From positions 1 to 51,421 of the forward strand of contig JAHFHX010000007.1 of assembly GCA_023246655.1 (NCBI GenBank): a DNA stretch of 51,421 nt. Direction: 5' to 3'. The notes beneath the pieces are model-generated. The model ran no database searches, was not told the DNA's origin, and saw nothing but the letters and a program-made list of their open reading frames with translations. Shown piece by piece: positions 31,553 through 42,302 of this stretch (position 1 is its first letter; every line of letters begins with the position of its first letter). The DNA comes from Candidatus Magasanikiibacteriota bacterium (GTDB taxonomy: Bacteria; Patescibacteriota; Patescibacteriia; Magasanikbacterales; GWA2-37-8). The position numbers were made by a program, and so were the translations under genes.

Positions 31553-32542
31553 ATGAATAAAGATTTTGCTCTCATTGACGCCAATTTTGCCCGCGCGCGG
31601 GAGGGATTTAGAGTGCTTGATGAAAGTGCGCGGTTTGTATTGTGTGACCATAAAATTTTTGAAATTATCAAACAGTTACGTCACCGGTTAGTGGGAATAG
31701 AGGAGCGAATTGGCTTACATTTTCTTAGTGCTCAAGAGGGGAACGATGTTGGCGAAACAGTCATCGGTGAGAATAATCATCGTCGTTCCTCACTCTACGA
31801 TATTATCCGCGCTAATAGCCGGCGGGTTACCGAATCACTCCGCGTCCTTGAGGAAGTTTTAAAAATATATCGACCGGAGATAATTCGAGAATGTTCCACT
31901 ATGCGCTATCGCGTGTATGAAGCAGAAGCGGCACTGGCCCGGCAAACACCACACTATTATTTGCATCGCTATTGTGCGAGGGGTATTGTGTATCCATTGG
32001 CGGAAACGGTTGAGGAAATTATATGGTTGGTTACTCATGGCGCGCGCCTGGTGCAATTGCGGGATAAAACGAGTAATAAAATTGAGATTGAGACTAAGAT
32101 TCAACGGTTGTGTCGAGCAATCAGCGAGATCAATACATTACGAGAAGACAAAGTTTTACTTATCATCAATGATTATCCCGAGCTCGCGGCGAAGTATCCG
32201 GTCGCAGGGGTACATGTGGGCCAGGAGGATGGGAATATTAGTGCGGTTCGTCAACTAGTTGGCAGCAATAAAATTATTGGTCGATCAAACCATTCGCTAG
32301 CGCAGGTACGGCAATCGGTTGCCGCAGGGGCAGATTATATTAGTATTGGCCCAGTGTATGCCACCCCCACTAAAGCCGAGCGGCCCCCAGTGGGACTGGA
32401 ATTGGTGCGGCAGGTAGCCTTAGAGAGCAGTATCCCATGGCTCGCTATTGGGGGCATTGATGAAAAAACCATCCATGAGGTCCGGGCCGCAGGCGCCAAG
32501 AATGTAGCGGTAGTGCGCTCTGGCAGGAAATTTTTTAGTTAA
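31553..32542 (+). CDS. thiE: Thiamine-phosphate synthase with N-terminal ThiD2-like helical domain
   Basis: DANFARAREGFRVLDE; VQLRDK, IIND, GVHVGQED, GPVYATPTK, AIGGI. Confidence 0.9.
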   Translation: MNKDFALIDANFARAREGFRVLDESARFVLCDHKIFEIIKQLRHRLVGIEERIGLHFLSAQEGNDVGETVIGENNHRRSSLYDIIRANSRRVTESLRVLEEVLKIYRPEIIRECSTMRYRVYEAEAALARQTPHYYLHRYCARGIVYPLAETVEEIIWLVTHGARLVQLRDKTSNKIEIETKIQRLCRAISEINTLREDKVLLIINDYPELAAKYPVAGVHVGQEDGNISAVRQLVGSNKIIGRSNHSLAQVRQSVAAGADYISIGPVYATPTKAERPPVGLELVRQVALESSIPWLAIGGIDEKTIHEVRAAGAKNVAVVRSGRKFFS

Positions 32543-32947: not shown

Positions 32948-33250
32948 CATTTGTTATAACTAAGCAAGGTAACAAATAGAAATTACTTATCTTACATTAG
33001 CCAAATATAGGGTTTTGCGTCTAGATGCGTTTACAGCACATTTGGGCGTAGAACCTTAGGGTTCTATAAGTTCTTTACAATAATGGATTTGCTCAAAGTA
33101 GTGTCTTAGGGTGGAGCCAATGAGACCTTGATATTTTAGGGAATAGTAAATAGCTGTTTTCTTAAATATCAAGGTCTATGCTGCCACGCCCACCGCCATC
33201 ACGGCGAATGGGATAACGTTGCAGCAGCAGAGTTTCGCGAAGGAGGCCCC

Positions 33251-34063
33251 ATGTTGCCCGAGACCACCCCCCCCGTCATCAAGTTTGATTTTCCTTCCCT
33301 CGACGCGCAGGCTGCGATGTGGCGCCGTGTCGCCATCATCGTCGCCGTCGTCGCGACGGTGATCTGCGCCTCCCTCGGCGCCCTGGCCGGCGCCGTGCAG
33401 TACCGGCGCAACCAGGACGCCGCGGCCTGCCAGCACAACAGCGCCCCCCCCGCCGCGCAGCCGGCCGTCGCCATCGCGTCCCGGAAGGCCGTCGAGGCGC
33501 CCACGCCGTCGCCCACTCCCGCCCCGAAGGTGGCCAAGCGGCACCGCCGCACGCGCCTCACCCCGCCGGTCATCGCACCGCTCGTGATCGAGCCGGCCGC
33601 GGACCTCGCCGCGATCCTCGCTAAGTCGGGGGGCATCGGCACCGCCGGCATCCTGGCGGAGTTCCGCCCCCTCCAGCCCCGCGGCATCGGCGCCCCCCGC
33701 TTTCGATCGCTCGGCGGGCAAGACCCGACAGCTCTTGAGGAGCTCGAGGCGGCTCCAATTACCGTTCGGGGCCACCTCGAAATCGACCTCAGCGACGAGG
33801 TTGAGACGCCGCCGCAGCTGGCGGTCTTCGTCGGGGCCTTCCCCGGCGAGGAGCCTCGCGAGATGAACCTCGCCCTGCTCCACCGGAGCATCGAGCGCCG
33901 GCTTGCGGAGCTGAAGGCGAACCCGCCCCCGGCCGCGCCGGCCGAGCACGCCCCCACCTTCGTGGAGGAGCCGTGCCACCCAGTCGACGAGATGACCGGG
34001 TACTGCGCCCGCAAGAAGGCGGCCGACCCCGGGTGGGGATGGTCGCCTCCGGCCGGCAACTAA
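33251..34063 (+). CDS. GC-rich hypothetical single-TM Pro/Ala-rich protein
   Basis: SD aggagg at 33241, G/C-ending codons in this frame, TM VAIIVAVVATVICASLGALAGAV. Confidence 0.7.
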   Translation: MLPETTPPVIKFDFPSLDAQAAMWRRVAIIVAVVATVICASLGALAGAVQYRRNQDAAACQHNSAPPAAQPAVAIASRKAVEAPTPSPTPAPKVAKRHRRTRLTPPVIAPLVIEPAADLAAILAKSGGIGTAGILAEFRPLQPRGIGAPRFRSLGGQDPTALEELEAAPITVRGHLEIDLSDEVETPPQLAVFVGAFPGEEPREMNLALLHRSIERRLAELKANPPPAAPAEHAPTFVEEPCHPVDEMTGYCARKKAADPGWGWSPPAGN

Positions 34064-34208
34064 CCCCGGCACAGCAGGGGGGGCAAGGGCCGAGCAAATC
34101 CCGTCCCGCCGCACCATCGCTGGTGCAGGCGGGCGAAGTAGCGCGGGGGACGATTCAGACGTCCCCCCATCAATCCTTGTTCATAATTATATTGTGACCA
34201 GAGATTAT

Positions 34209-34245
34209 AAAAAATCCTCCCAACTAAGTTTGGGAGGATTTTTTT
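34209..34245. terminator. Bidirectional terminator
   Basis: aaaaaatcctccca...tgggaggattttttt between convergent genes. Confidence 0.8.
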
Positions 34246-34247
34246 AA

Positions 34248-36038
34248 TTACACATTTTTTACCATATACGTTTTTTGCAGTCGGTATCCAAGGTGGCGAT
34301 AATAATCACGGACGCCCACCCCAGAGATAACAGCCAGTTTGTGTAGCTTCTGTTTTTTAACAATCCGTTCTGCCTCGTGCACCAACTTTTTTCCAAGGCC
34401 GGTATGTTGGGTTAATTCCTTTTGATGTTTACCAATGCCCACGAGTTGGCCATAGGTGTGGAGTTCGCGGATGTAGGCGGCGAAGGGTCTTTGTTTGTCA
34501 TTCTGAGGCGGAGCCGAAGAATCTAGTTGTCGCGAACTAGATCCTTCGCTTCGCTCTGGATGACAGATACGAAGTCGGCAAAACGCAAACACTACCTGTC
34601 GTTTGGTATCTTCGAAGCTTAAAAAATATTCCGTGCCGCCGTGTGTCTTATAGTGGTCAACAAATAATTTCGGTTTCAAATTTTGTATCGTTTTATATGT
34701 ATCGTGTATCATGTTCGCGGCGTGCCCAATTTCTCGGCATCGCAAACATTTACAGGCGCGGCCTTCTTTTTTTAATTCCGCTTGAATCACTTGCCGCAAG
34801 TTTGTTACCTTGTTTCCGTTTTCAATATATTGCCCGGGAATATCGCGAATGAGGCGGGAGATGCGGCAGTAGCGGGGGACAGTGGTTTTAAATTCTTTAA
34901 GAATTCGAATGAGATCTTCCGTGGGGTACGTCTTAAATTTTCCGGCTCTGAACCAATCGTACAACTCTGAACCCTTAACCACCGAGCACGGGTAAATTTT
35001 AATCATGTCGGGGCGGTATCCTGGGTCGGTAAAAATAGTTTTAAGCATTGCCAAATCAGTTTCTGGTGTTGCGCCCGGGAGTTGGGGCATAAGGTGAAAG
35101 TCTGTTTTAAAGCCGTAATTACGAAGTAGCTCGGCGGCATCTTTCGCCTGTTCGGCGCTATGGCCGCGTTTCGTTAATTTTAAAATGTCGTTATCCGTAT
35201 GCTGAATTCCCAGTTCAATTCTGGTCGTGCCCATCTCCCGCATTTGCCACATTGATTTTGGAGTAATACAATCCGGCCGCGTCTCCAGCGTGAGGCCGAT
35301 AATTCGGTGCTTGGCATGTTCATTAAGTCGTTGTTGCTGTTTAAGCTCATCCCGAAGATCAGCGAGCGAGGAATTTTCGGTCAACTTCAATTCCCCCCTC
35401 GAGGGGGGTAGTGGGGGTGTAAGACCGTTGCGTCGTAAAAGGTAGGTGAGTGGCGAACCACGCAGAGGACTCACACCCCCCATGAGCCCCCCTCGAGGGG
35501 GGAATTCATTACACGCTTTGAACGACTCCAGCACAAACCAGTATTGGTAGGGCAGGGGATATGAATTCCAGGTGCCACCTTTGATGATGAGTTCAATTTT
35601 ATCGGTGGGGTGGCCATTATTCTCCAAGGCCTCAATGCGCCTGGCCATTTGTTCGTAGGGGTCAAATTTTAAGGCAAGCGCTCGCATGGCGGCTGGTTCT
35701 TCCGATAAGTAACTTTTTGGCATTCGTTCATCCAATGGGCAATACACACATTGCCCAGGGCAGGGGTAAGGTTTTACCAATGAGGTGACAATAGTGACCC
35801 CCGAGAGCGTGCGCACCGCTCGGCGTGTGAGGAGTTTTTCTAAATTTTTATTTGGCTGAATGTTTTTATTTTTTAAAAGTTTGTGGTACGCTGAAAGGAG
35901 TTCAGTTTTGGTTGGTAACGGCGAGCCCCTTTTTCCTGGTATGCCCCTGGACAGTTGCCGTTTAAGGATATTAAAATCAACCTCATTTTTAAGAGGATTT
36001 GTAAGAGCAGCGAGAATAATTTTTTCTGTGAGGGACAT
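34248..36038 (-). CDS. elp3: Elp3 radical SAM/KAT tRNA uridine(34) carboxymethylase with two in-frame palindromic insertions
   Basis: VRTLSGV, CPGQCVYCP, PKSY, ETRPD, ELGIQ, KIYP, RLIRDIP, C.CLRCRE, RELHTYG, QHTGLGKKL, VISGVGVRDYY. Confidence 0.93.
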   Translation of the reverse strand: MSLTEKIILAALTNPLKNEVDFNILKRQLSRGIPGKRGSPLPTKTELLSAYHKLLKNKNIQPNKNLEKLLTRRAVRTLSGVTIVTSLVKPYPCPGQCVYCPLDERMPKSYLSEEPAAMRALALKFDPYEQMARRIEALENNGHPTDKIELIIKGGTWNSYPLPYQYWFVLESFKACNEFPPRGGLMGGVSPLRGSPLTYLLRRNGLTPPLPPSRGELKLTENSSLADLRDELKQQQRLNEHAKHRIIGLTLETRPDCITPKSMWQMREMGTTRIELGIQHTDNDILKLTKRGHSAEQAKDAAELLRNYGFKTDFHLMPQLPGATPETDLAMLKTIFTDPGYRPDMIKIYPCSVVKGSELYDWFRAGKFKTYPTEDLIRILKEFKTTVPRYCRISRLIRDIPGQYIENGNKVTNLRQVIQAELKKEGRACKCLRCREIGHAANMIHDTYKTIQNLKPKLFVDHYKTHGGTEYFLSFEDTKRQVVFAFCRLRICHPERSEGSSSRQLDSSAPPQNDKQRPFAAYIRELHTYGQLVGIGKHQKELTQHTGLGKKLVHEAERIVKKQKLHKLAVISGVGVRDYYRHLGYRLQKTYMVKNV

Positions 36039-36044
36039 TACATT

Positions 36045-36597
36045 TAATGCTAATAACGAATGTATGCAAATCTACCAATGTGCGAATTAATAGTGTGAGT
36101 AATTTATAGCAAGCATATACTATTATGGCTTATCTTGTCCATCCTGAATTGTCCTATCAAGTTGTTGGTATTCTGTATGAGGCACATAATGAAGTCAGCA
36201 GGTTCAGTAGCGAACAAGAAATAGGGGATATAATTGCTTTGCGATTAAAAATCGTAGGAATACCGTTTGTGAGAGAGTTTAATTTGCAGCCAATCCATCG
36301 GGGGGAACACAACGGCAGGCATCGAGTAGATTTTTTAATAGAAGATAAAATTGTATTAGAAATAAAAACTAAAAAATTTTTGACTAAAGAGGACTATTAC
36401 CAAGTACAACGCTACCTTAAACATCTGAATTTGAAGTTGGGAATTTTAGTAAATTTTAGAGATGAACGCCTTCATCCAAAACGTATCCTAAATAGTGTCG
36501 GCAAGGAATAAGCCTTTTTTAATTATGCTGCTGTAATTATTAGTTGGTATTATTATTCGCACATTAGTAGATTTGCATACATTCGTTATTAGCATTA
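36045..36597. mobile_element. Inverted-repeat-bounded GxxExxY cassette
   Basis: 43-bp inverted repeats at 36045-36087 and 36555-36597 (one mismatch) enclosing a single gene. Confidence 0.65.
36125..36511 (+). CDS. GxxExxY family PD-(D/E)XK nuclease-like protein
   Basis: ELSYQVVGILYEAHNE, RVDFLIEDKIVLEIK, QVQRYL...LKLGILVNF; namesake motif degenerate (RFSSEQEI). Confidence 0.88.
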   Translation: MAYLVHPELSYQVVGILYEAHNEVSRFSSEQEIGDIIALRLKIVGIPFVREFNLQPIHRGEHNGRHRVDFLIEDKIVLEIKTKKFLTKEDYYQVQRYLKHLNLKLGILVNFRDERLHPKRILNSVGKE

Positions 36598-36598
36598 T

Positions 36599-37303
36599 AT
36601 GCATCATCTTATACAAAAAACCCGCCAAGATTACAATAAAATCGCTCAGCACTTCTCTGGCACGCGGTATGATGTGTGGCCGGAACTAGAACAGTTTAAA
36701 CCACTTATTAAAGATGGTCAACGGATTTTGGATTGGGGGTGTGGGAACGGCCGACTGCTGCTTTTAATTGGAGAAAGGGCGGCGCATTATGTAGGGGTTG
36801 ACCAGAGCATAGAGCTGTTAAAAATTGCTCGGCACAAGCACCTATTAGCGATAAAAGCTGGGCGAGCACGATTCTACTCAACGGCCCGGCGTGAAAAAAA
36901 GTTTCCCTCAAACTATTTTGATTTGGTTTTTATGGTGGCTTCATTTCATCATCTACCGGATAGTGCTAGTCGTTTGGCGTTACTTAAAAAGGTGCAGCAG
37001 GAATTAAAGCCAGAGGGAAAGCTTGTTATAACCGTGTGGAATTTAAGCAGTACGTGGGCTCGCCAGGTGTTACAAAAGAAGGGCTGGCATCAGATTGGTA
37101 AACAAGATTTTCTAATTCCTTGGAAAGATAACCGTACCGGGAAAGTTATTGTCGAACGGTATTATCATCATTGTACCCCCACCGAAATGCGTGGCCTGCT
37201 TAAAGAAGCTGGCTTTAAGGTCATAAGGCTTGGGTATGGCCCGGGGGTTAAGACCAGCGAAAGAAAAGGCCGTAACCTCATTGTGGTGGCTACTAAAAAG
37301 TAA
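36599..37303 (+). CDS. Class I SAM methyltransferase, Trm9/ALKBH8-like
   Basis: YNKIAQHFSGTR..W, LDWGCGNGR, ASFHH, LITVW-like LVITVW, DFLIPW, RYYH, N..VVATK. Confidence 0.8.
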   Translation: MHHLIQKTRQDYNKIAQHFSGTRYDVWPELEQFKPLIKDGQRILDWGCGNGRLLLLIGERAAHYVGVDQSIELLKIARHKHLLAIKAGRARFYSTARREKKFPSNYFDLVFMVASFHHLPDSASRLALLKKVQQELKPEGKLVITVWNLSSTWARQVLQKKGWHQIGKQDFLIPWKDNRTGKVIVERYYHHCTPTEMRGLLKEAGFKVIRLGYGPGVKTSERKGRNLIVVATKK

Positions 37304-37328
37304 ATCCTCCCAATTGCGGGAGGATTTA
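37301..37328. terminator. Hairpin between convergent genes
   Basis: taaatcctccc-aattgc-gggaggattta. Confidence 0.7.
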
Positions 37329-38486
37329 AGCGACTTTGAGATGGGACGTCAGGGGGGTTTCTGGTGTACACGGGCGAGCATAGAGCCGCTCGGTTTTTTT
37401 AACCAACTCAGTCCACGTGTAGTGTTCACGCACCGTCTGGCTATTTTTTTGGCCGGCGGTGGCCAAGAGGGAAGGGTTTTTAATAAGTTCAATAATTTTA
37501 TCAGCTAAGTCGGCTACGCTCGTGTTCGTAAACCAGAAACGGTTATCGGTAATTAATTCTTGGTGTTCGGGAATATTAGAAACCAGCGCTGGTCGGCCAT
37601 AGGCCATCGCTTGGAGCACGGTGAGCGGCAAGCCTTCGTTTTCCGATGGATGAATAAAGAGCCCCGCATGTGCATAGAGCTGTTCCAGTGGTTCCCCCGA
37701 AAGCCAGTCGGTAAAGATAATGCTGTGGTCATCGTGTGCCAACTCGTGGAGCTCCTCAACATAATCATCGGTAAAAGCACTTCCACCTACTATGATCAGT
37801 TTATAATCTTTAAGGAGTTGAGGATATTGTTTTTTGGCAAAGCTCCAGGCCGCTACCAAATAATGAGCGCCTTTGTGGCGTACTAACCGAGACACCATGA
37901 GCACATATTTTTGGGGGGCAATGTGCCAACGGGGCAGAAGGTTAGTTGCAGCCACGGCAGGAATGGTGGTGCCATTGGGAATGAGGGAAGTATTTTTTTG
38001 GTATTCATTAAGACAATAACTATGGATAGTTTTGGAGACAGAAATTGTTTCGTGTGGAAAAAGACAGGCCGCCAATTCTCCCCAGCGCAACGCCAAGCGA
38101 GCCAACCAACCCCATTTTTGATGATAGCGATCAATACAGTGGAACGTTGCTATTACTTTAATCCGTGGCGATAACAGTCGGGGCAGCCAGCTTAACAGTG
38201 ATGGACCAACGCCATGGTAATGAATAACATCCACTTTTTGGAAAAGGGCGTGGATGGTAGCAGATAAGGTATGGGTTAAGGCATCTAAATGTTTGGTATG
38301 AATGGTGGGAGTATGTATCACCATAGTGCCACGCTGTCGGCCAGTGGCTGGGGAATACCATTTGCGCGCATATACCAAAACATTATGGCCTTGGGTGGCC
38401 AATTCAGTCGCCAAATCTTCTACGTGGCGTTCAATGCCACCGTAGAGAGCGGGGATTCCTTTTTGTCCAATCATGGCAATACGCAT
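37326..38486 (-). CDS. Glycosyltransferase family 4
   Basis: MRIAMIGQKGIPALYGGIE, SRLVRHKG, PSENEGLPLTVLQAMAYG. Confidence 0.92.
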   Translation of the reverse strand: MRIAMIGQKGIPALYGGIERHVEDLATELATQGHNVLVYARKWYSPATGRQRGTMVIHTPTIHTKHLDALTHTLSATIHALFQKVDVIHYHGVGPSLLSWLPRLLSPRIKVIATFHCIDRYHQKWGWLARLALRWGELAACLFPHETISVSKTIHSYCLNEYQKNTSLIPNGTTIPAVAATNLLPRWHIAPQKYVLMVSRLVRHKGAHYLVAAWSFAKKQYPQLLKDYKLIIVGGSAFTDDYVEELHELAHDDHSIIFTDWLSGEPLEQLYAHAGLFIHPSENEGLPLTVLQAMAYGRPALVSNIPEHQELITDNRFWFTNTSVADLADKIIELIKNPSLLATAGQKNSQTVREHYTWTELVKKTERLYARPCTPETPLTSHLKVA

Positions 38487-38708
38487 AGTTTAATGCTAGA
38501 AAGTTGGTAACAATAGCACATTTTTATCTATTTGTCAAGCTGAAAGCAATCGATTTTATAATCAGGCTACCATGAGGATATGCGAAATAGAAAGCTGCGA
38601 AAGGATAATTGATTTTTCGCGTATTAAAAAAATAAAACTTCTGTTAAGAGAAGTGGGGGTGGGAGCGTGCAGCCGGCCTTGTTAGGCTAGTATGCACACT
38701 CCCGGTGG

Positions 38709-39236
38709 TCAGTGCCGGTGGTGGTGCCGGCGGTGATGCTCGTGGTGATGGTGCCGGTGTCGCTTGGGCGCCGTCGGCACGTCTGCCGGTTCGGGCTCGG
38801 CCGCTTCCGGCGTGGCGGCCTCCGCCTGGCTCGGCGGGGCAGACAGTGCCGCCGGCTGCGGTGCTGCTGCGGCCGGCGCGCTGTCAGCAGCCGCATCGGC
38901 TGCAGTTGCGCCTGCGTCCGGCGGCGGGGGCAGGTCGGCCGGAGCGGCGAGCACCGCGTCGGTCACGGCTGCGCCTGCGTCCGGCGGGACGCGCAGATCG
39001 GCGGGAGCGTGGGCCGCATCGGCCGCGGTCCCTGCGTCCGCCGCTGCGTAGCGGGGTTCCACCGGCGTGGGTGCCGGCGGGGCGGGCGAGTCGGGGATAT
39101 AGATGGCGCCCGTGATGATGAGCGCCAAGAGGAGAAGACAAAAAACTCCCACCCACGGCCTGGACCGCTCGATGAGCGGGTCCAGGTGCTTCTCGTCGAA
39201 CTGGTCCATGCGGACCAAGAGCTTTTGCAACCACAT
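38709..39236 (-). CDS. GC-rich single-TM protein with DAG repeats and a His/Arg tail
   Basis: SD aaggagga upstream of ATG 39236; TM WVGVFCLLLLALIITGAIYI; PPDAG repeats; KRHRHHHHEHHRRHHHRH. Confidence 0.7.
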   Translation of the reverse strand: MWLQKLLVRMDQFDEKHLDPLIERSRPWVGVFCLLLLALIITGAIYIPDSPAPPAPTPVEPRYAAADAGTAADAAHAPADLRVPPDAGAAVTDAVLAAPADLPPPPDAGATAADAAADSAPAAAAPQPAALSAPPSQAEAATPEAAEPEPADVPTAPKRHRHHHHEHHRRHHHRH

Positions 39237-39371
39237 GATTTTTTCCTCCTTGGTTAATTTAATAACTACCACAAAAATAGGCTTTTGTCAATGGCAGATG
39301 AGTCAAATTTTAGGTTGTGGATAAGTAGCCTTGAGAGATATAAAAAACTTTGTTATGGTAGTTATAGATTT

Positions 39372-39937: not shown

Positions 39938-40207
39938 TTGTCAAGCAACGGAGGCGGGGTCGCCATGACCCCGGATGAAGAAGCAAATTACACCCGGTGG
40001 CGGCACGAAAGTGCCGACACCAAGTTCAAGAGTTTTGAGCTGCTCCCCGTGCCGCAGGCCGTGATCCGTCTGCCCTGCGGCTGTACGAATGGGCGCGGCC
40101 AGGAGCAGCTCTGGGTCGAGCGTGACCCCAAGAGCCCGCAGCGGCCCGCGCCGCTCAAATGTCGCCGCTGCCAGGCGACGCTCCCCGCGGTTCCGCGCCG
40201 CCCTTGA
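39938..40207 (+). CDS. GC-rich small protein with CxC...CxxC (possible Zn ribbon)
   Basis: SD aaggagg before TTG 39938 (alternative ATG 39965); LPCGC...KCRRC. Confidence 0.55.
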   Translation: MSSNGGGVAMTPDEEANYTRWRHESADTKFKSFELLPVPQAVIRLPCGCTNGRGQEQLWVERDPKSPQRPAPLKCRRCQATLPAVPRRP

Positions 40208-40349
40208 GGAGGAATTTTTCTCTGGGAGGGTACCCAACCAATGGTGCTGCCCTCCCCCCTATATACAATTAAATTTTACTCACCAGCGAATCTCTAAAGA
40301 TATTCGGAGATTAGCTGGTGTGTAGCAATGCACCAGAAAGGAAAAAGGC

Positions 40350-40445
40350 ATGGACCCGGTGCCAATTGAATGCCCCGGCCCGTACGGGCAGCCTCGCCCG
40401 CGGCCGAAACCTCGGCCCAAACCCCTGCCTCCCAAGCCGAATTGA
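40350..40445 (+). CDS. 31-aa Pro/Arg/Lys-rich peptide MDPVPIECPGPYGQPRPRPKPRPKPLPPKPN
   Basis: aaagga SD, ATG 40350, TGA 40443; translated by hand. Confidence 0.5.
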   Translation: MDPVPIECPGPYGQPRPRPKPRPKPLPPKPN

Positions 40446-40525
40446 TCCCGCCCCGTGTGCTGGGATCGCACTCCGGGGGCCGCCGTCACACGCGGTTGTG
40501 CCCCCACTCTCCATCATTAAAAGCC

Positions 40526-40555
40526 TTGACAGGTTTATATAAAATAACATAGAAT
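40526..40555 (+). promoter_or_regulatory. Sigma70 promoter
   Basis: TTGACA-18-TAGAAT. Confidence 0.65.
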
Positions 40556-40568
40556 GTTGGAATCATTT

Positions 40569-40655
40569 ATGACCGCTTCGCAAAACTTTGTTATTATTAC
40601 GATCATTGTAGCCCTCTTGTTGCCGTGGGGTGATTATGGTGTTGTCAAAAGATAA
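40569..40655 (+). CDS. Putative attenuator leader peptide MTASQNFVIITIIVALLLPWGDYGVVKR
   Basis: Ile/Val/Leu run, starts just after the promoter, overlaps the antiterminator. Confidence 0.6.
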   Translation: MTASQNFVIITIIVALLLPWGDYGVVKR

Positions 40656-40705
40656 CGAAACACAAAACCATAATCACCCCTGAGGCAACTCGGGGGTTTT
40701 TGTTT
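40627..40705 (+). promoter_or_regulatory. Attenuator-like switch 2
   Basis: 14-bp ggggtgattatggt/accataatcacccc competes with terminator acccctgag-GCAA-ctcgggggt-ttttgttt. Confidence 0.7.
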
Positions 40706-40817
40706 AAATTGTTCTTTCCACCAGTTCTCAATCGCTCAGCCAAAAGGGAATATTGTTTCTTTTTGAATGAGCGATTGGGACGAAAGTTTTAAAAGCTCAG
40801 AGACACGAGGAGTCAAC

Positions 40818-40982
40818 ATGCCCAGTGACGAACGCCCGCTCCCCCCGTTTGCGATTGGCGACGAGCCAGTCGCCCAGGAACCCCAACCGCCCAAGAAAAA
40901 AGTGGGTGAGACTGAAGCCGAGCGCAATGCTCGTCTTCGCCACCCCGCCGGTGAGGCGGACATGTCGGATTTCCTGGTCTGA
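40818..40982 (+). CDS. GC-rich 54-aa hypothetical protein
   Basis: SD aggag before ATG 40818; followed by long hairpin cctagg...cctagg. Confidence 0.55.
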   Translation: MPSDERPLPPFAIGDEPVAQEPQPPKKKVGETEAERNARLRHPAGEADMSDFLV

Positions 40983-41147
40983 GCTTTGCGCCTAGGGCGC
41001 GCTACCCACGTCCATCACCATGGATGCGGGCGGCGCACCTAGGCCGGCTCGTTGTGAGCAAAATTAGTTTTGCTTATATCAGCTGATGTTCTAGGTAACG
41101 ATGGTGTTGCCTGGAACTAACTGACCATTTTCAGAGGAGACTAGTAA

Positions 41148-42302
41148 ATGGAAACTCGCCGGACGCGGATCGCGGTCGTGGGAGCAGGCCTCAACAGTGC
41201 CCTGCTCGCAACCGCCCTCGTCCGGGCGGGTATCGATGATTTCGTCGTCGTCGATCAATTCCCTTTCCTTAGCCGTTGGTTTAACATAATCCAGCGGCAA
41301 GGGGCAAACTCCATGTGGACGGCCTGGCCGTATCACCTGGAGTGGGGAGTGGACGAAAGTCTGCGGCGTTTTGCGGAAACGCAGGCCGTTGCCGACTTCT
41401 CGGGCAACCCGAGCGTTGCTCTGTTCAACGCTCATGCCCAAGGTGTAATTCAGGAATACCACCTCGAGCAGCACCGCCTGGCTGGGGTGGTAACTAACAT
41501 TGAACGCGGCGCAGGCGGTTGGCAGCTTACCGTGACGGGTGAGCAGCCTGCCTCCATCGAGGCGTCTCGTGTCGTCATCGCGCTCGGCATCGGCGCTCCG
41601 GCCATGCCGCTCAATGGTTGTCCGCCGTCGGCTCTGGTGAGCCATGTTGCCAGCTTGGACCTCAGTGCGCTAAAGGCGCATGACTGGCAAGGTCGCTCGG
41701 TCTTGGTGGTAGGCCGGGGTCCGTCGGCGTTTGTAGCCGCCAAGCGTTTTGCCGAAGCGGCCGCCGCGGTGACCGTGGTTGCCAAAGGCGGCAGCCTCAC
41801 CGCAACGAATGGGGACTGCGCCAGTGCTTGGCAACCACCTGCTGGGCGGCTCTACCAAGAGTTCGCTCGCCTCGGGAGCGCTGAGCGCCGGGAGCGGCTA
41901 CGCTCTGCCTGGATCACCAACACCACCGCCACAGGCGCTGCCTGGAGCGATCTACTCCGCCACTACCCAATCAACCATATCTCTACGGAGGCAGGGTTGA
42001 CTCACTGGTCCACAGCGGGTGGTGTGGTGAGGGTAGACAGCATAGGCAACTGCTTTCACCAAGTGGTGATGGCAACCGGGTACCGGTGGGATGTTGCGGA
42101 GATTGGTTTCCTTCGCAATCTCCTTCCACGCCTTCCCGTCGTAGGTGGGCTCCCCATCCTCAACCAAACCCTTGAGGCCTTACCTGGTCTTCACTTCCTT
42201 GGCGGCTTGTCCGCTTTGGAGCTGGGGCCGGCGGCGCTCGATCTTACCGGGGCTACCTACGGGGTGGGTAGGCTCCGCAACGCACTTCTTTCCCTTGTCT
42301 AG
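41148..42302 (+). CDS. FAD/NAD(P)-dependent oxidoreductase (flavoprotein monooxygenase-like)
   Basis: IAVVGAGLNS, VLVVGRGPSA, MATGY, GLHFLGGLSALELGP; SD gaggag. Confidence 0.8.
   Translation: METRRTRIAVVGAGLNSALLATALVRAGIDDFVVVDQFPFLSRWFNIIQRQGANSMWTAWPYHLEWGVDESLRRFAETQAVADFSGNPSVALFNAHAQGVIQEYHLEQHRLAGVVTNIERGAGGWQLTVTGEQPASIEASRVVIALGIGAPAMPLNGCPPSALVSHVASLDLSALKAHDWQGRSVLVVGRGPSAFVAAKRFAEAAAAVTVVAKGGSLTATNGDCASAWQPPAGRLYQEFARLGSAERRERLRSAWITNTTATGAAWSDLLRHYPINHISTEAGLTHWSTAGGVVRVDSIGNCFHQVVMATGYRWDVAEIGFLRNLLPRLPVVGGLPILNQTLEALPGLHFLGGLSALELGPAALDLTGATYGVGRLRNALLSLV

Follow-up and report, generated by a model that had tools for sequence, protein, structure and literature searches.

A divergent elp3 and Trm9-like methyltransferase gene pair in a Magasanikbacterales genome: a predicted Elongator-type pathway for wobble uridine modification without Trm112

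The stretch of DNA considered here (the window) comprises 51,421 nucleotides (nt) of a Candidatus Magasanikiibacteriota bacterium (Patescibacteriota; Magasanikbacterales; contig JAHFHX010000007.1 of assembly GCA_023246655.1), whose genome was assembled to 1.126 Mb in 32 contigs and is 96.8% complete. A preliminary description, made from the sequence alone, had proposed that the interval 34248-37303 carries a head-to-head pair of genes, elp3 and a Trm9-like methyltransferase gene, which together modify the wobble uridine (U34) of tRNAs. We found that this interval consists of three open reading frames (ORFs), namely elp3 on the minus strand and, on the plus strand, an ORF of 128 amino acids (aa) followed by a methyltransferase gene of 234 aa (Table 1). 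The elp3 and methyltransferase ORFs lie exactly where they had been placed, and they are indeed divergent; however, they do not face each other directly. Their start codons are 560 nt apart because an ORF of the GxxExxY family, which had gone unmentioned, sits between them within an inverted repeat.

The elp3 product is full length, as first described: it scores 520.8 bits against TIGR01211 (cut-off 350), covers nearly the whole model (positions 38-521 of 522) and contains the Pfam domains Radical_SAM, Radical_SAM_C and Acetyltransf_10 (GNAT). Its best relatives in the PDB are the Elp3 proteins of Methanocaldococcus infernus (6iaz, 7.9e-116) and Dehalococcoides mccartyi (5l7j, 3.3e-109). The motifs CPGQCVYCP, CKCLRC and QHTGLGKKL are present and align with those of the relatives; we take CPGQCVYC to be the cysteine triad of the radical S-adenosylmethionine (SAM) domain, CKCLRC the site in the Cys-rich linker and QHTGLGKKL the acetyl-CoA motif of the GNAT domain.

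The methyltransferase was compared with proteins of solved structure by sequence and by profile. In a phmmer search of the PDB, its best match was the Yarrowia Trm9 chain 5cm2_Z (8.5e-20 over residues 20-214), the next match standing at 1.1e-11; judged by this alignment, the likeness to Trm9 is far beyond chance. A profile of 22 rows (alignment A1: the window protein, 10 of 120 listed homologues and 11 of 30 loci from a sample of the phylum) again ranked 5cm2_Z first (8.9e-31, 110.4 bits; next 4.9e-22, 81.8 bits), and it gave the window methyltransferase 319.9 bits against 60.4 bits for the best paralogue in the same genome. The profile comparison that the preliminary description had proposed thus points to Trm9, as does its claim that the motifs of the protein follow those of Trm9: every motif quoted is in the sequence and aligned with its counterpart in 5cm2_Z (TRY..W, D-x-GCGNG, HH, D-x-x-x-PW and RYYH), the last, N-L-I-V-V-A-T-K with N-W-W-V-V-A-K of Trm9, being a pair that HMMER left unaligned and that was matched by eye.

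According to the yeast study, replacement of R29, D72, H116, W145, W168, R241, Y243 or N271 of Trm9 by alanine confers zymocin resistance, and activity is lost or lowered at least tenfold (Letoquart 2015, PMC4678810). These eight residues correspond to R23, D45, H118, W147, W175, R187, Y189 and N226 in the window protein, where all are present; the positions were transferred through the Yarrowia numbering offsets of the printed alignments, and N226 was matched by eye. Their conservation was counted in an alignment of 82 rows, of which 72 are Trm9-like (38 from the candidate phyla radiation (CPR), 18 from other bacteria, 3 from archaea and 13 from eukaryotes) and 10 are paralogues from the same genome (Table 1). 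R187 and W175 each occur in none of these 10 class I methyltransferase paralogues. The Trm9 structure, as described, has a two-stranded lid inserted after strand beta5 (PMC4678810). The AlphaFold2 model of the window methyltransferase (predicted local distance difference test score 93.3) has such a lid, in which strands 170-176 and 183-190 follow strand 136-147 and bear W175 and R187-Y189.

An identity as CmoM or CmoB was rejected, in that the protein scores 21.7 bits against NF008264 (cut-off 366) and CmoB is absent from the genome. Two relatives of the methyltransferase (P0087 and P0059) are already called TRM9 or 'tRNA methyltransferase ... esterification of modified uridine' in JGI and NCBI annotation, so the similarity has been caught by automatic pipelines. 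No fusion of the ALKBH8 type was found among the longer relatives listed, in a search that is weak for this purpose because it depends on shared words. Other arrangements of the domain were observed: in some relatives (P0121-P0123) it is fused to a WecG/TagA/CpsF-type glycosyltransferase in proteins of about 500-527 aa (P0121 was confirmed by Pfam), and at G199:C1:344791-345468 and G127:C3:57490-58119, both remote from elp3, it forms part of extended open frames of 495 and 518 aa. A Plasmodium gene model (P0124) also contains a Trm9 domain.

Eukaryotic rows for a phylogeny were gathered with the methyltransferase domain of this Plasmodium protein as query, and the named matches included 'tRNA (carboxymethyluridine(34)-5-O)-methyltransferase' of Theileria, 'alkylated DNA repair protein alkB homolog 8' of spiders and 'TRM9' of fungi. 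A quick IQ-TREE search was run on 82 of the 137 assembled rows, the 55 left out being mostly further CPR loci. The bacterial rows formed one group (Shimodaira-Hasegawa-like approximate likelihood ratio test, SH-aLRT, 97), beside which two archaea and the eukaryotes, including the named Trm9 and ALKBH8 proteins, formed another (SH-aLRT 90), with all eukaryotes in a single clade (100). As seen against a narrow outgroup, the tree is compatible with a bacterial clade within the Trm9 family.

Linkage of the two genes was examined in a sample of the phylum comprising 301 genomes, namely an even sample of 300 and the window's own genome. The methyltransferase was found at E<=1e-20 in 68 of these genomes, and every one of the 68 also encodes Elp3, which itself was found in 121 genomes (118 of them over the cut-off). 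The two genes lie less than 3 kb apart in 60 of the 68 and are divergent in all 60, with gaps typically of 35-230 bp; at E<=1e-10 the methyltransferase was found in 94 genomes, 88 with Elp3 and 73 with the genes adjacent and divergent, over 34 family codes. In an independent collection of named records, from which 80 loci were kept of 421 confirmed, Elp3 was encoded within 4 kb at 60 loci and the genes were divergent at less than 1.5 kb at 53. Among the 20 loci lacking Elp3, the upstream sequence of 7 is shorter than 1.1 kb, and hence no conclusion was drawn from those 7. The linkage is not a local chance arrangement, and the synteny across the CPR that the preliminary description had put forward as a check extends to other phyla. 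The closest named relatives are labelled Candidatus Magasanikbacteria; other CPR labels include Saccharibacteria, Paceibacterota, Komeili-, Peregrini-, Gracili-, Kuenen-, Moran-, Portnoy-, Lloyd-, Falkow- and Dojkabacteria, and labels outside the CPR include Chloroflexota, Myxococcota, Fermentibacterota, Omnitrophota and Acidobacteriota, although some of the automatically assigned labels, 'uncultured Gammaproteobacteria' for example, seem doubtful. In one locus labelled Candidatus Gracilibacteria (L056), the two genes are co-directional, with elp3 upstream and a gap of 41 nt, whereas nearly all other bacterial loci are divergent.

The preliminary description had asked about other wobble uridine genes of this organism. 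In its own genome, MnmG (TIGR00136) has no match, and no match to MnmE (TIGR00450) exceeds the cut-off, the only similarity being that of the GTPase domains of Der- and Era-like frames, below the cut-off. MnmA, in contrast to these, is present (378.4 bits; cut-off 236.95). Across the sample, MnmG was found in 11 of the 301 genomes, none of which is among the 121 with Elp3; the enzymes and chemistry of the two systems are unrelated, and in this sample they are mutually exclusive. Neither Elp3 nor MnmG was detected at the thresholds used in 169 of the 301 genomes, which may modify C5 of U34 in another way or not at all.

The Trm112 family (PF03966) likewise has no match in the window's own genome, in line with the suggestion that the enzyme might work without it. 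Trm112-like matches were found in 19 of the 301 genomes (12 over the cut-off), all of them inside frames of 200-758 aa. Among the 68 genomes that carry the methyltransferase, 63 lack any such match, and in the other 5 it lies away from the methyltransferase gene. Eukaryotic and archaeal Trm9 proteins require Trm112 for solubility and activity, according to two reports (PMC4678810, PMC6144793), and six hydrophobic residues of Trm9, which in Yarrowia are V59, F78, V102, A110, P112 and F116, are described in the first of them as buried by Trm112 (PMC4678810). Of the 22 rows of A1, all 22 at V59, 21 at F78 and all 22 at A110 have neither an aliphatic residue nor Phe, most residues there being polar or charged; V102 and F116 have hydrophobic counterparts, and 13 of the 22 rows retain P112. 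Such a changed contact surface would fit an enzyme that has no need of Trm112. The absence of Trm112 makes a canonical Trm9-Trm112 holoenzyme less likely and leaves the identification of a Trm9-type catalytic subunit unaffected.

The genome has 48 tRNA genes; for Lys, Glu, Gln, Arg (UCU/CCU), Leu (UAA/CAA) and Gly they include isoacceptors with U34 as well as with C34. Such paired sets are the arrangement in which tRNAs carrying 5-methoxycarbonylmethyluridine (mcm5U), with or without 2-thiolation (mcm5(s2)U), work in eukaryotes. As a separate observation, the genome encodes a tRNA-Ile(UAU) and only two tRNA genes with the anticodon CAU, and no match to TilS exceeds its cut-off. A tRNA with lysidine is therefore probably not the reader of AUA, which would instead be decoded by tRNA-Ile(UAU), whose U34 is a possible substrate of Elp3.

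These data suggest a pathway of three steps. Elp3 alone, by means of its radical-SAM and acetyl-CoA domains, would carboxymethylate C5 of U34 in a subset of tRNAs to give 5-carboxymethyluridine (cm5U). The divergently encoded methyltransferase, as a bacterial orthologue of Trm9/ALKBH8, would then esterify the carboxyl group with a methyl group from SAM to give mcm5U, and would do so without Trm112. Finally, MnmA of the bacterial type would 2-thiolate tRNA-Lys(UUU), tRNA-Glu(UUC) and tRNA-Gln(UUG) to give mcm5s2U. The Elp3/Trm9-like pathway would thereby stand in for MnmE/MnmG. The identities of the two proteins, the conservation of the catalytic residues, the linkage of the genes, the absences and the presence of MnmA were observed directly, and from them we infer the chemistry of the pair, its tRNA substrates and its independence of Trm112. 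That Elp3 and the Trm9-like enzyme form a two-gene Elongator-type wobble module producing, with MnmA, mcm5(s2)U34 without Trm112 is, in our judgment, a likely reading of this locus. The broader proposition, that a Trm112-independent bacterial Trm9 clade and stand-alone Elp3 constitute a conserved divergent module, serving as the main and perhaps the only pathway to C5-modified U34 (xm5U34) in about 40% of Patescibacteria, in parts of Chloroflexota and Myxococcota and in others, and producing mcm5s2U with MnmA, is one toward which we lean slightly. The preliminary description had spoken of a non-bacterial route; an Elp3/Trm9-type pathway is supported, but the word non-bacterial is too strong because the pair is widespread in bacteria.

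Several points weigh against this interpretation. All of the evidence for the pathway in bacteria that have the pair is computational, and Trm112, the required partner of the known Trm9 enzymes, was not found in this genome. The methyltransferase matches only generic Pfam families (Methyltransf_23, _11, _25 and others) and none in NCBIfam over the cut-off; with no Trm9-named family matched in either collection, no curated cut-off can be applied. In a Foldseek search of the PDB, Trm9 (5cm2_Z) came first at 4.1e-16, but an unrelated methyltransferase followed at 8.7e-16, and the fold search cannot discriminate because other class I methyltransferases score nearly as well as Trm9. Y189 is retained in only 1 of the 18 rows from bacteria outside the CPR. 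As for the tree, the outgroup was narrow (10 paralogues from one genome), the branch to 9 of the 10 had an SH-aLRT of only 85 in a quick search, and one paralogue with a long branch fell inside the bacterial group in the free tree; in favour of the grouping, a tree forced to keep all 10 together had a log-likelihood 5.3 above that of the free search and was not rejected (approximately unbiased test, p 0.63). In 8 of the 68 genomes, the genes are not adjacent, some being on different contigs and two pairs lying 73 kb and 446 kb apart. Elp3 occurs with no methyltransferase match at 1e-10 in 33 of 121 genomes, and in one family code it is present in 14 of 14 genomes and the methyltransferase in 0 of 14; Elp3 therefore does not depend on the methyltransferase. 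Lastly, two in-frame repeat insertions in this elp3 mean that its activity is not assured.

It was also considered that the methyltransferase, although a true relative of Trm9 acting downstream of Elp3, makes an end product other than mcm5U, by using another intermediate derived from Elp3, by methylating another atom or by forming a hitherto undescribed derivative of cm5U (xcm5U) found in these bacteria alone. The linkage to Elp3 is established and the chemistry predicted, Y189 (Y243 in yeast) varies in bacterial clades and Trm112 is absent. A Haloferax trm9 mutant showed no build-up of cm5U and instead contained a species to which no identity was assigned (PMC6144793), so that products of Elp3 are evidently easily diverted. 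On the other hand, the residues modelled to hold the carboxylate and uracil ring of cm5U (R23, H118, R187, N226 and W147) are kept almost without exception, and we regard a different end product as unlikely.

The pair might alternatively be decaying or inactive in this genome, given two palindromic insertions in elp3 and a selfish cassette that splits the shared promoter region between the start codons. The first insertion, an element of 110 bp, falls in a stretch of Elp3 (aa 180-230) that does not align with relatives, and it was found at 15 loci of the genome (for example, C2:107866-107973 and C24:56181-56291), 13 of which are in frames of 216-1163 aa without a stop; in-frame insertion into protein-coding genes thus seems to be its habit, which suggests that it is tolerated. 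We take this element to be reminiscent of the Rickettsia palindromic elements. In contigs of groundwater metagenomes, summed depth was 112-1522 over the second, imperfect palindrome and 23-54 over the first element, as against about 0-9 in most other bins, and the second repeat is therefore common to many organisms of that habitat. Contig joints that skip 34479-34575 (X2) and 35301-35567 (X1, X2) are supported on each side by no more than 24-33 nt, at 90% identity, and give at most a weak hint that variants of elp3 without the insertions exist. Both insertions sit in loops that are of variable length in the relatives, neither reading frame is broken and all cofactor motifs are kept, and the genome has no MnmE/MnmG as a fallback. 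From its sequence, this Elp3 is expected to be active despite the insertions, and we hold decay of the pair to be quite improbable.

That the enzyme is a generic small-molecule or protein methyltransferase whose position beside elp3 is meaningless is a reading already disfavoured and highly improbable: the generic family matches and the non-discriminating fold search would permit it, but adjacency and orientation are kept in many phyla (60 of 68 loci in one collection, 53 of 80 in the other), all 68 genomes with the enzyme at E<=1e-20 also have Elp3, and the Trm9-specific lid residues are missing from all 10 paralogues.

The module predicted here may be compared with several known systems. With eukaryotic Trm9-Trm112 (yeast and Yarrowia; PDB 5CM2) and ALKBH8, the window enzyme shares the class I SAM fold, the beta-hairpin lid and all eight essential residues, and by inference the action on the product of Elp3; it differs from them in being encoded next to elp3, in belonging to a separate bacterial clade and in having no Trm112 and no RRM or AlkB domain. 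Archaeal Trm9, such as HVO_1032 of Haloferax with its Trm112, resembles it in the use of stand-alone Elp3 and Trm9 with no other Elongator subunits. Clustering of the genes for Elp3 and Trm9 was noted in Sulfolobus solfataricus (PMC2584109, PMC6144793) and is matched by a Crenarchaeota locus of our collection (L088), in which the methyltransferase gene is followed by elp3 on the same strand; bacterial pairs, in contrast, are divergent. Archaeal Trm9 further differs in that it needs Trm112 in vivo and for solubility, and archaeal thiolation relies on enzymes of the Ncs6/Tuc1 type where MnmA of the bacterial type is found here. The Elp3 of Dehalococcoides mccartyi (DmcElp3, 5L7J) is likewise a bacterial stand-alone Elp3, and loci of Chloroflexota have a divergent methyltransferase partner as well; the window Elp3, however, scores higher against the archaeal protein of M. 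infernus than against DmcElp3 (391 versus 369.1 bits) and has an N-terminal extension that DmcElp3 does not. MnmE-MnmG (with MnmC), which produces 5-(carboxy)methylaminomethyluridine, (c)mnm5U34, occupies the same niche, a C5 side chain on wobble uridines combined with thiolation by MnmA. CmoM of Gammaproteobacteria, which forms the methyl ester of cmo5U34, is likewise a class I methyltransferase of bacteria whose target is the carboxyl group of a wobble-uridine side chain, but it belongs to a different family.

A 2017 review stated that bacterial homologues of Trm112-dependent methyltransferases were undetectable (PMC5372719), and a 2020 review held bacterial Elp3 to be confined to the Dehalococcoides clade and xcm5U in bacteria to be without evidence; Trm9 is not mentioned in the available text of the latter (PMC7663514). 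A 2026 paper referred to 'numerous bacteria' with Elp3 alone (PMC13315578). No downstream methyltransferase is named in the accessible parts of the DmcElp3 literature, and no bacterial Trm9 in those of PMC5372719, PMC6144793, PMC6367351 and PMC13315578. Our literature search, whose coverage left out most subscription journals, returned no work connecting either Elp3 or Trm9 with the Patescibacteria or CPR. The pathway is apparently a variant of the known Elp3/Trm9 pathway, bacterial and seemingly independent of Trm112, for which no prior description was found in the literature searched. If the proposed pathway is correct, Elongator-type wobble modification is a widespread bacterial alternative to MnmEG, and no longer a trait of archaea and eukaryotes that bacteria share only in rare cases; in the Patescibacteria sample, MnmG is nearly absent (11 of 301 genomes) and Elp3 occurs in 121, mostly with a Trm9-type partner beside it. 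The 'eukaryotic' nucleoside mcm5s2U would then be made in bacteria, which would change the view of how split codon boxes are decoded in a large part of bacterial diversity. It would also provide a naturally Trm112-free Trm9 for biochemistry and structural work, the eukaryotic enzyme being insoluble alone, as well as a simple two-gene system for reconstituting mcm5U synthesis in Escherichia coli.

Table 1. Features of the interval and its borders, and conservation of the methyltransferase residues that correspond to essential residues of yeast Trm9
Feature	Position	Strand	Description
elp3	34248-36038	-	596 aa; radical-SAM and GNAT domains; predicted tRNA U34 carboxymethyl (cm5U) synthase
GxxExxY / PD-(D/E)XK ORF	36125-36511	+	128 aa; PF13366, TIGR04256
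Trm9-like class I SAM methyltransferase	36599-37303	+	234 aa; predicted cm5U34 to mcm5U34 carboxyl methyltransferase
Left arm of 43-nt inverted repeat (66 nt at 83%)	36045-36087		ends 7 nt from the elp3 start codon
Right arm of inverted repeat	36555-36597		ends 2 nt before the methyltransferase start codon
Hairpin downstream of elp3	34209-34244		15-nt perfect arms, 6-nt loop, T-runs on both strands; -21.2 kcal/mol, z -6.2
Hairpin overlapping the methyltransferase stop codon	37301-37328 (stem 37302-37325)		T-run on the - strand; -17.4 kcal/mol, z -5.1
Palindromic repeat element of 110 bp with CCCCCCTCGAGGGGGG at both boundaries	35393-35502		in frame, variable surface loop of Elp3
Second imperfect palindrome	~34500-34565		in frame in elp3, variable loop of the GNAT domain, aa ~493-515
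Methyltransferase R23, D45, H118, W147			kept in 72/72 Trm9-like rows
Methyltransferase R187			kept in 71/72 Trm9-like rows
Methyltransferase W175			kept in 64/72 Trm9-like rows; Phe in the remaining 8
Methyltransferase N226			kept in 63/72 Trm9-like rows
Methyltransferase Y189			kept in 45/72 Trm9-like rows; Cys or Val in most rows of the bacterial clade outside the CPR

The ORF between the two genes matches PF13366 (1.3e-20) and TIGR04256 (72.8 bits; cut-off 35), and we read it as an inserted cassette outside the tRNA pathway. In the predicted fold of the 36040-36602 RNA, the two ends pair in a long stem (z -7.1), and the near-perfect 43-nt repeat that forms its ends is unique to this locus in the genome. 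The identical sequence upstream of both genes was considered as a shared promoter or leader, and this was ruled out: four of the five GxxExxY genes of the genome are flanked by their own, different inverted repeats of 26-43 nt, and the repeat here therefore belongs to the GxxExxY cassette. The layout of an ORF within a stem suggests a mobile or processed cassette, and resembles that of intervening sequences in rRNA.

The preliminary description had also noted related hairpins closing both ends of the module. Both are real, fold strongly and share the 12-mer AAATCCTCCCAA, but they do not mark a module. The genome contains nine copies of their stem motif AAATCCTCCC, of which these two hairpins account for four and other places for five, and each hairpin also serves a neighbouring gene. 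The one downstream of elp3 looks like a terminator shared with the upstream ORF on the plus strand, and the one at the end of the methyltransferase gene is a predicted terminator for the convergent GT4 glycosyltransferase gene at 37326-38486; both may be read as ordinary terminator-like structures.

Elsewhere in the window, a ThiD2-ThiE (TMP-TENI) fusion, unrelated to the Elp3 and methyltransferase pair, is encoded upstream at 31553-32542. Islands rich in GC (0.56-0.58, against about 0.43-0.47 elsewhere) lie at 33176-34117, 38700-39272 and about 40000-42000 and have long ORFs on both strands; their likely products are Ala/Pro-rich proteins with a hydrophobic segment and without a Pfam match. 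Of the sequencing runs listed as containing this DNA, none is of RNA, and the four of DNA all come from one groundwater study.

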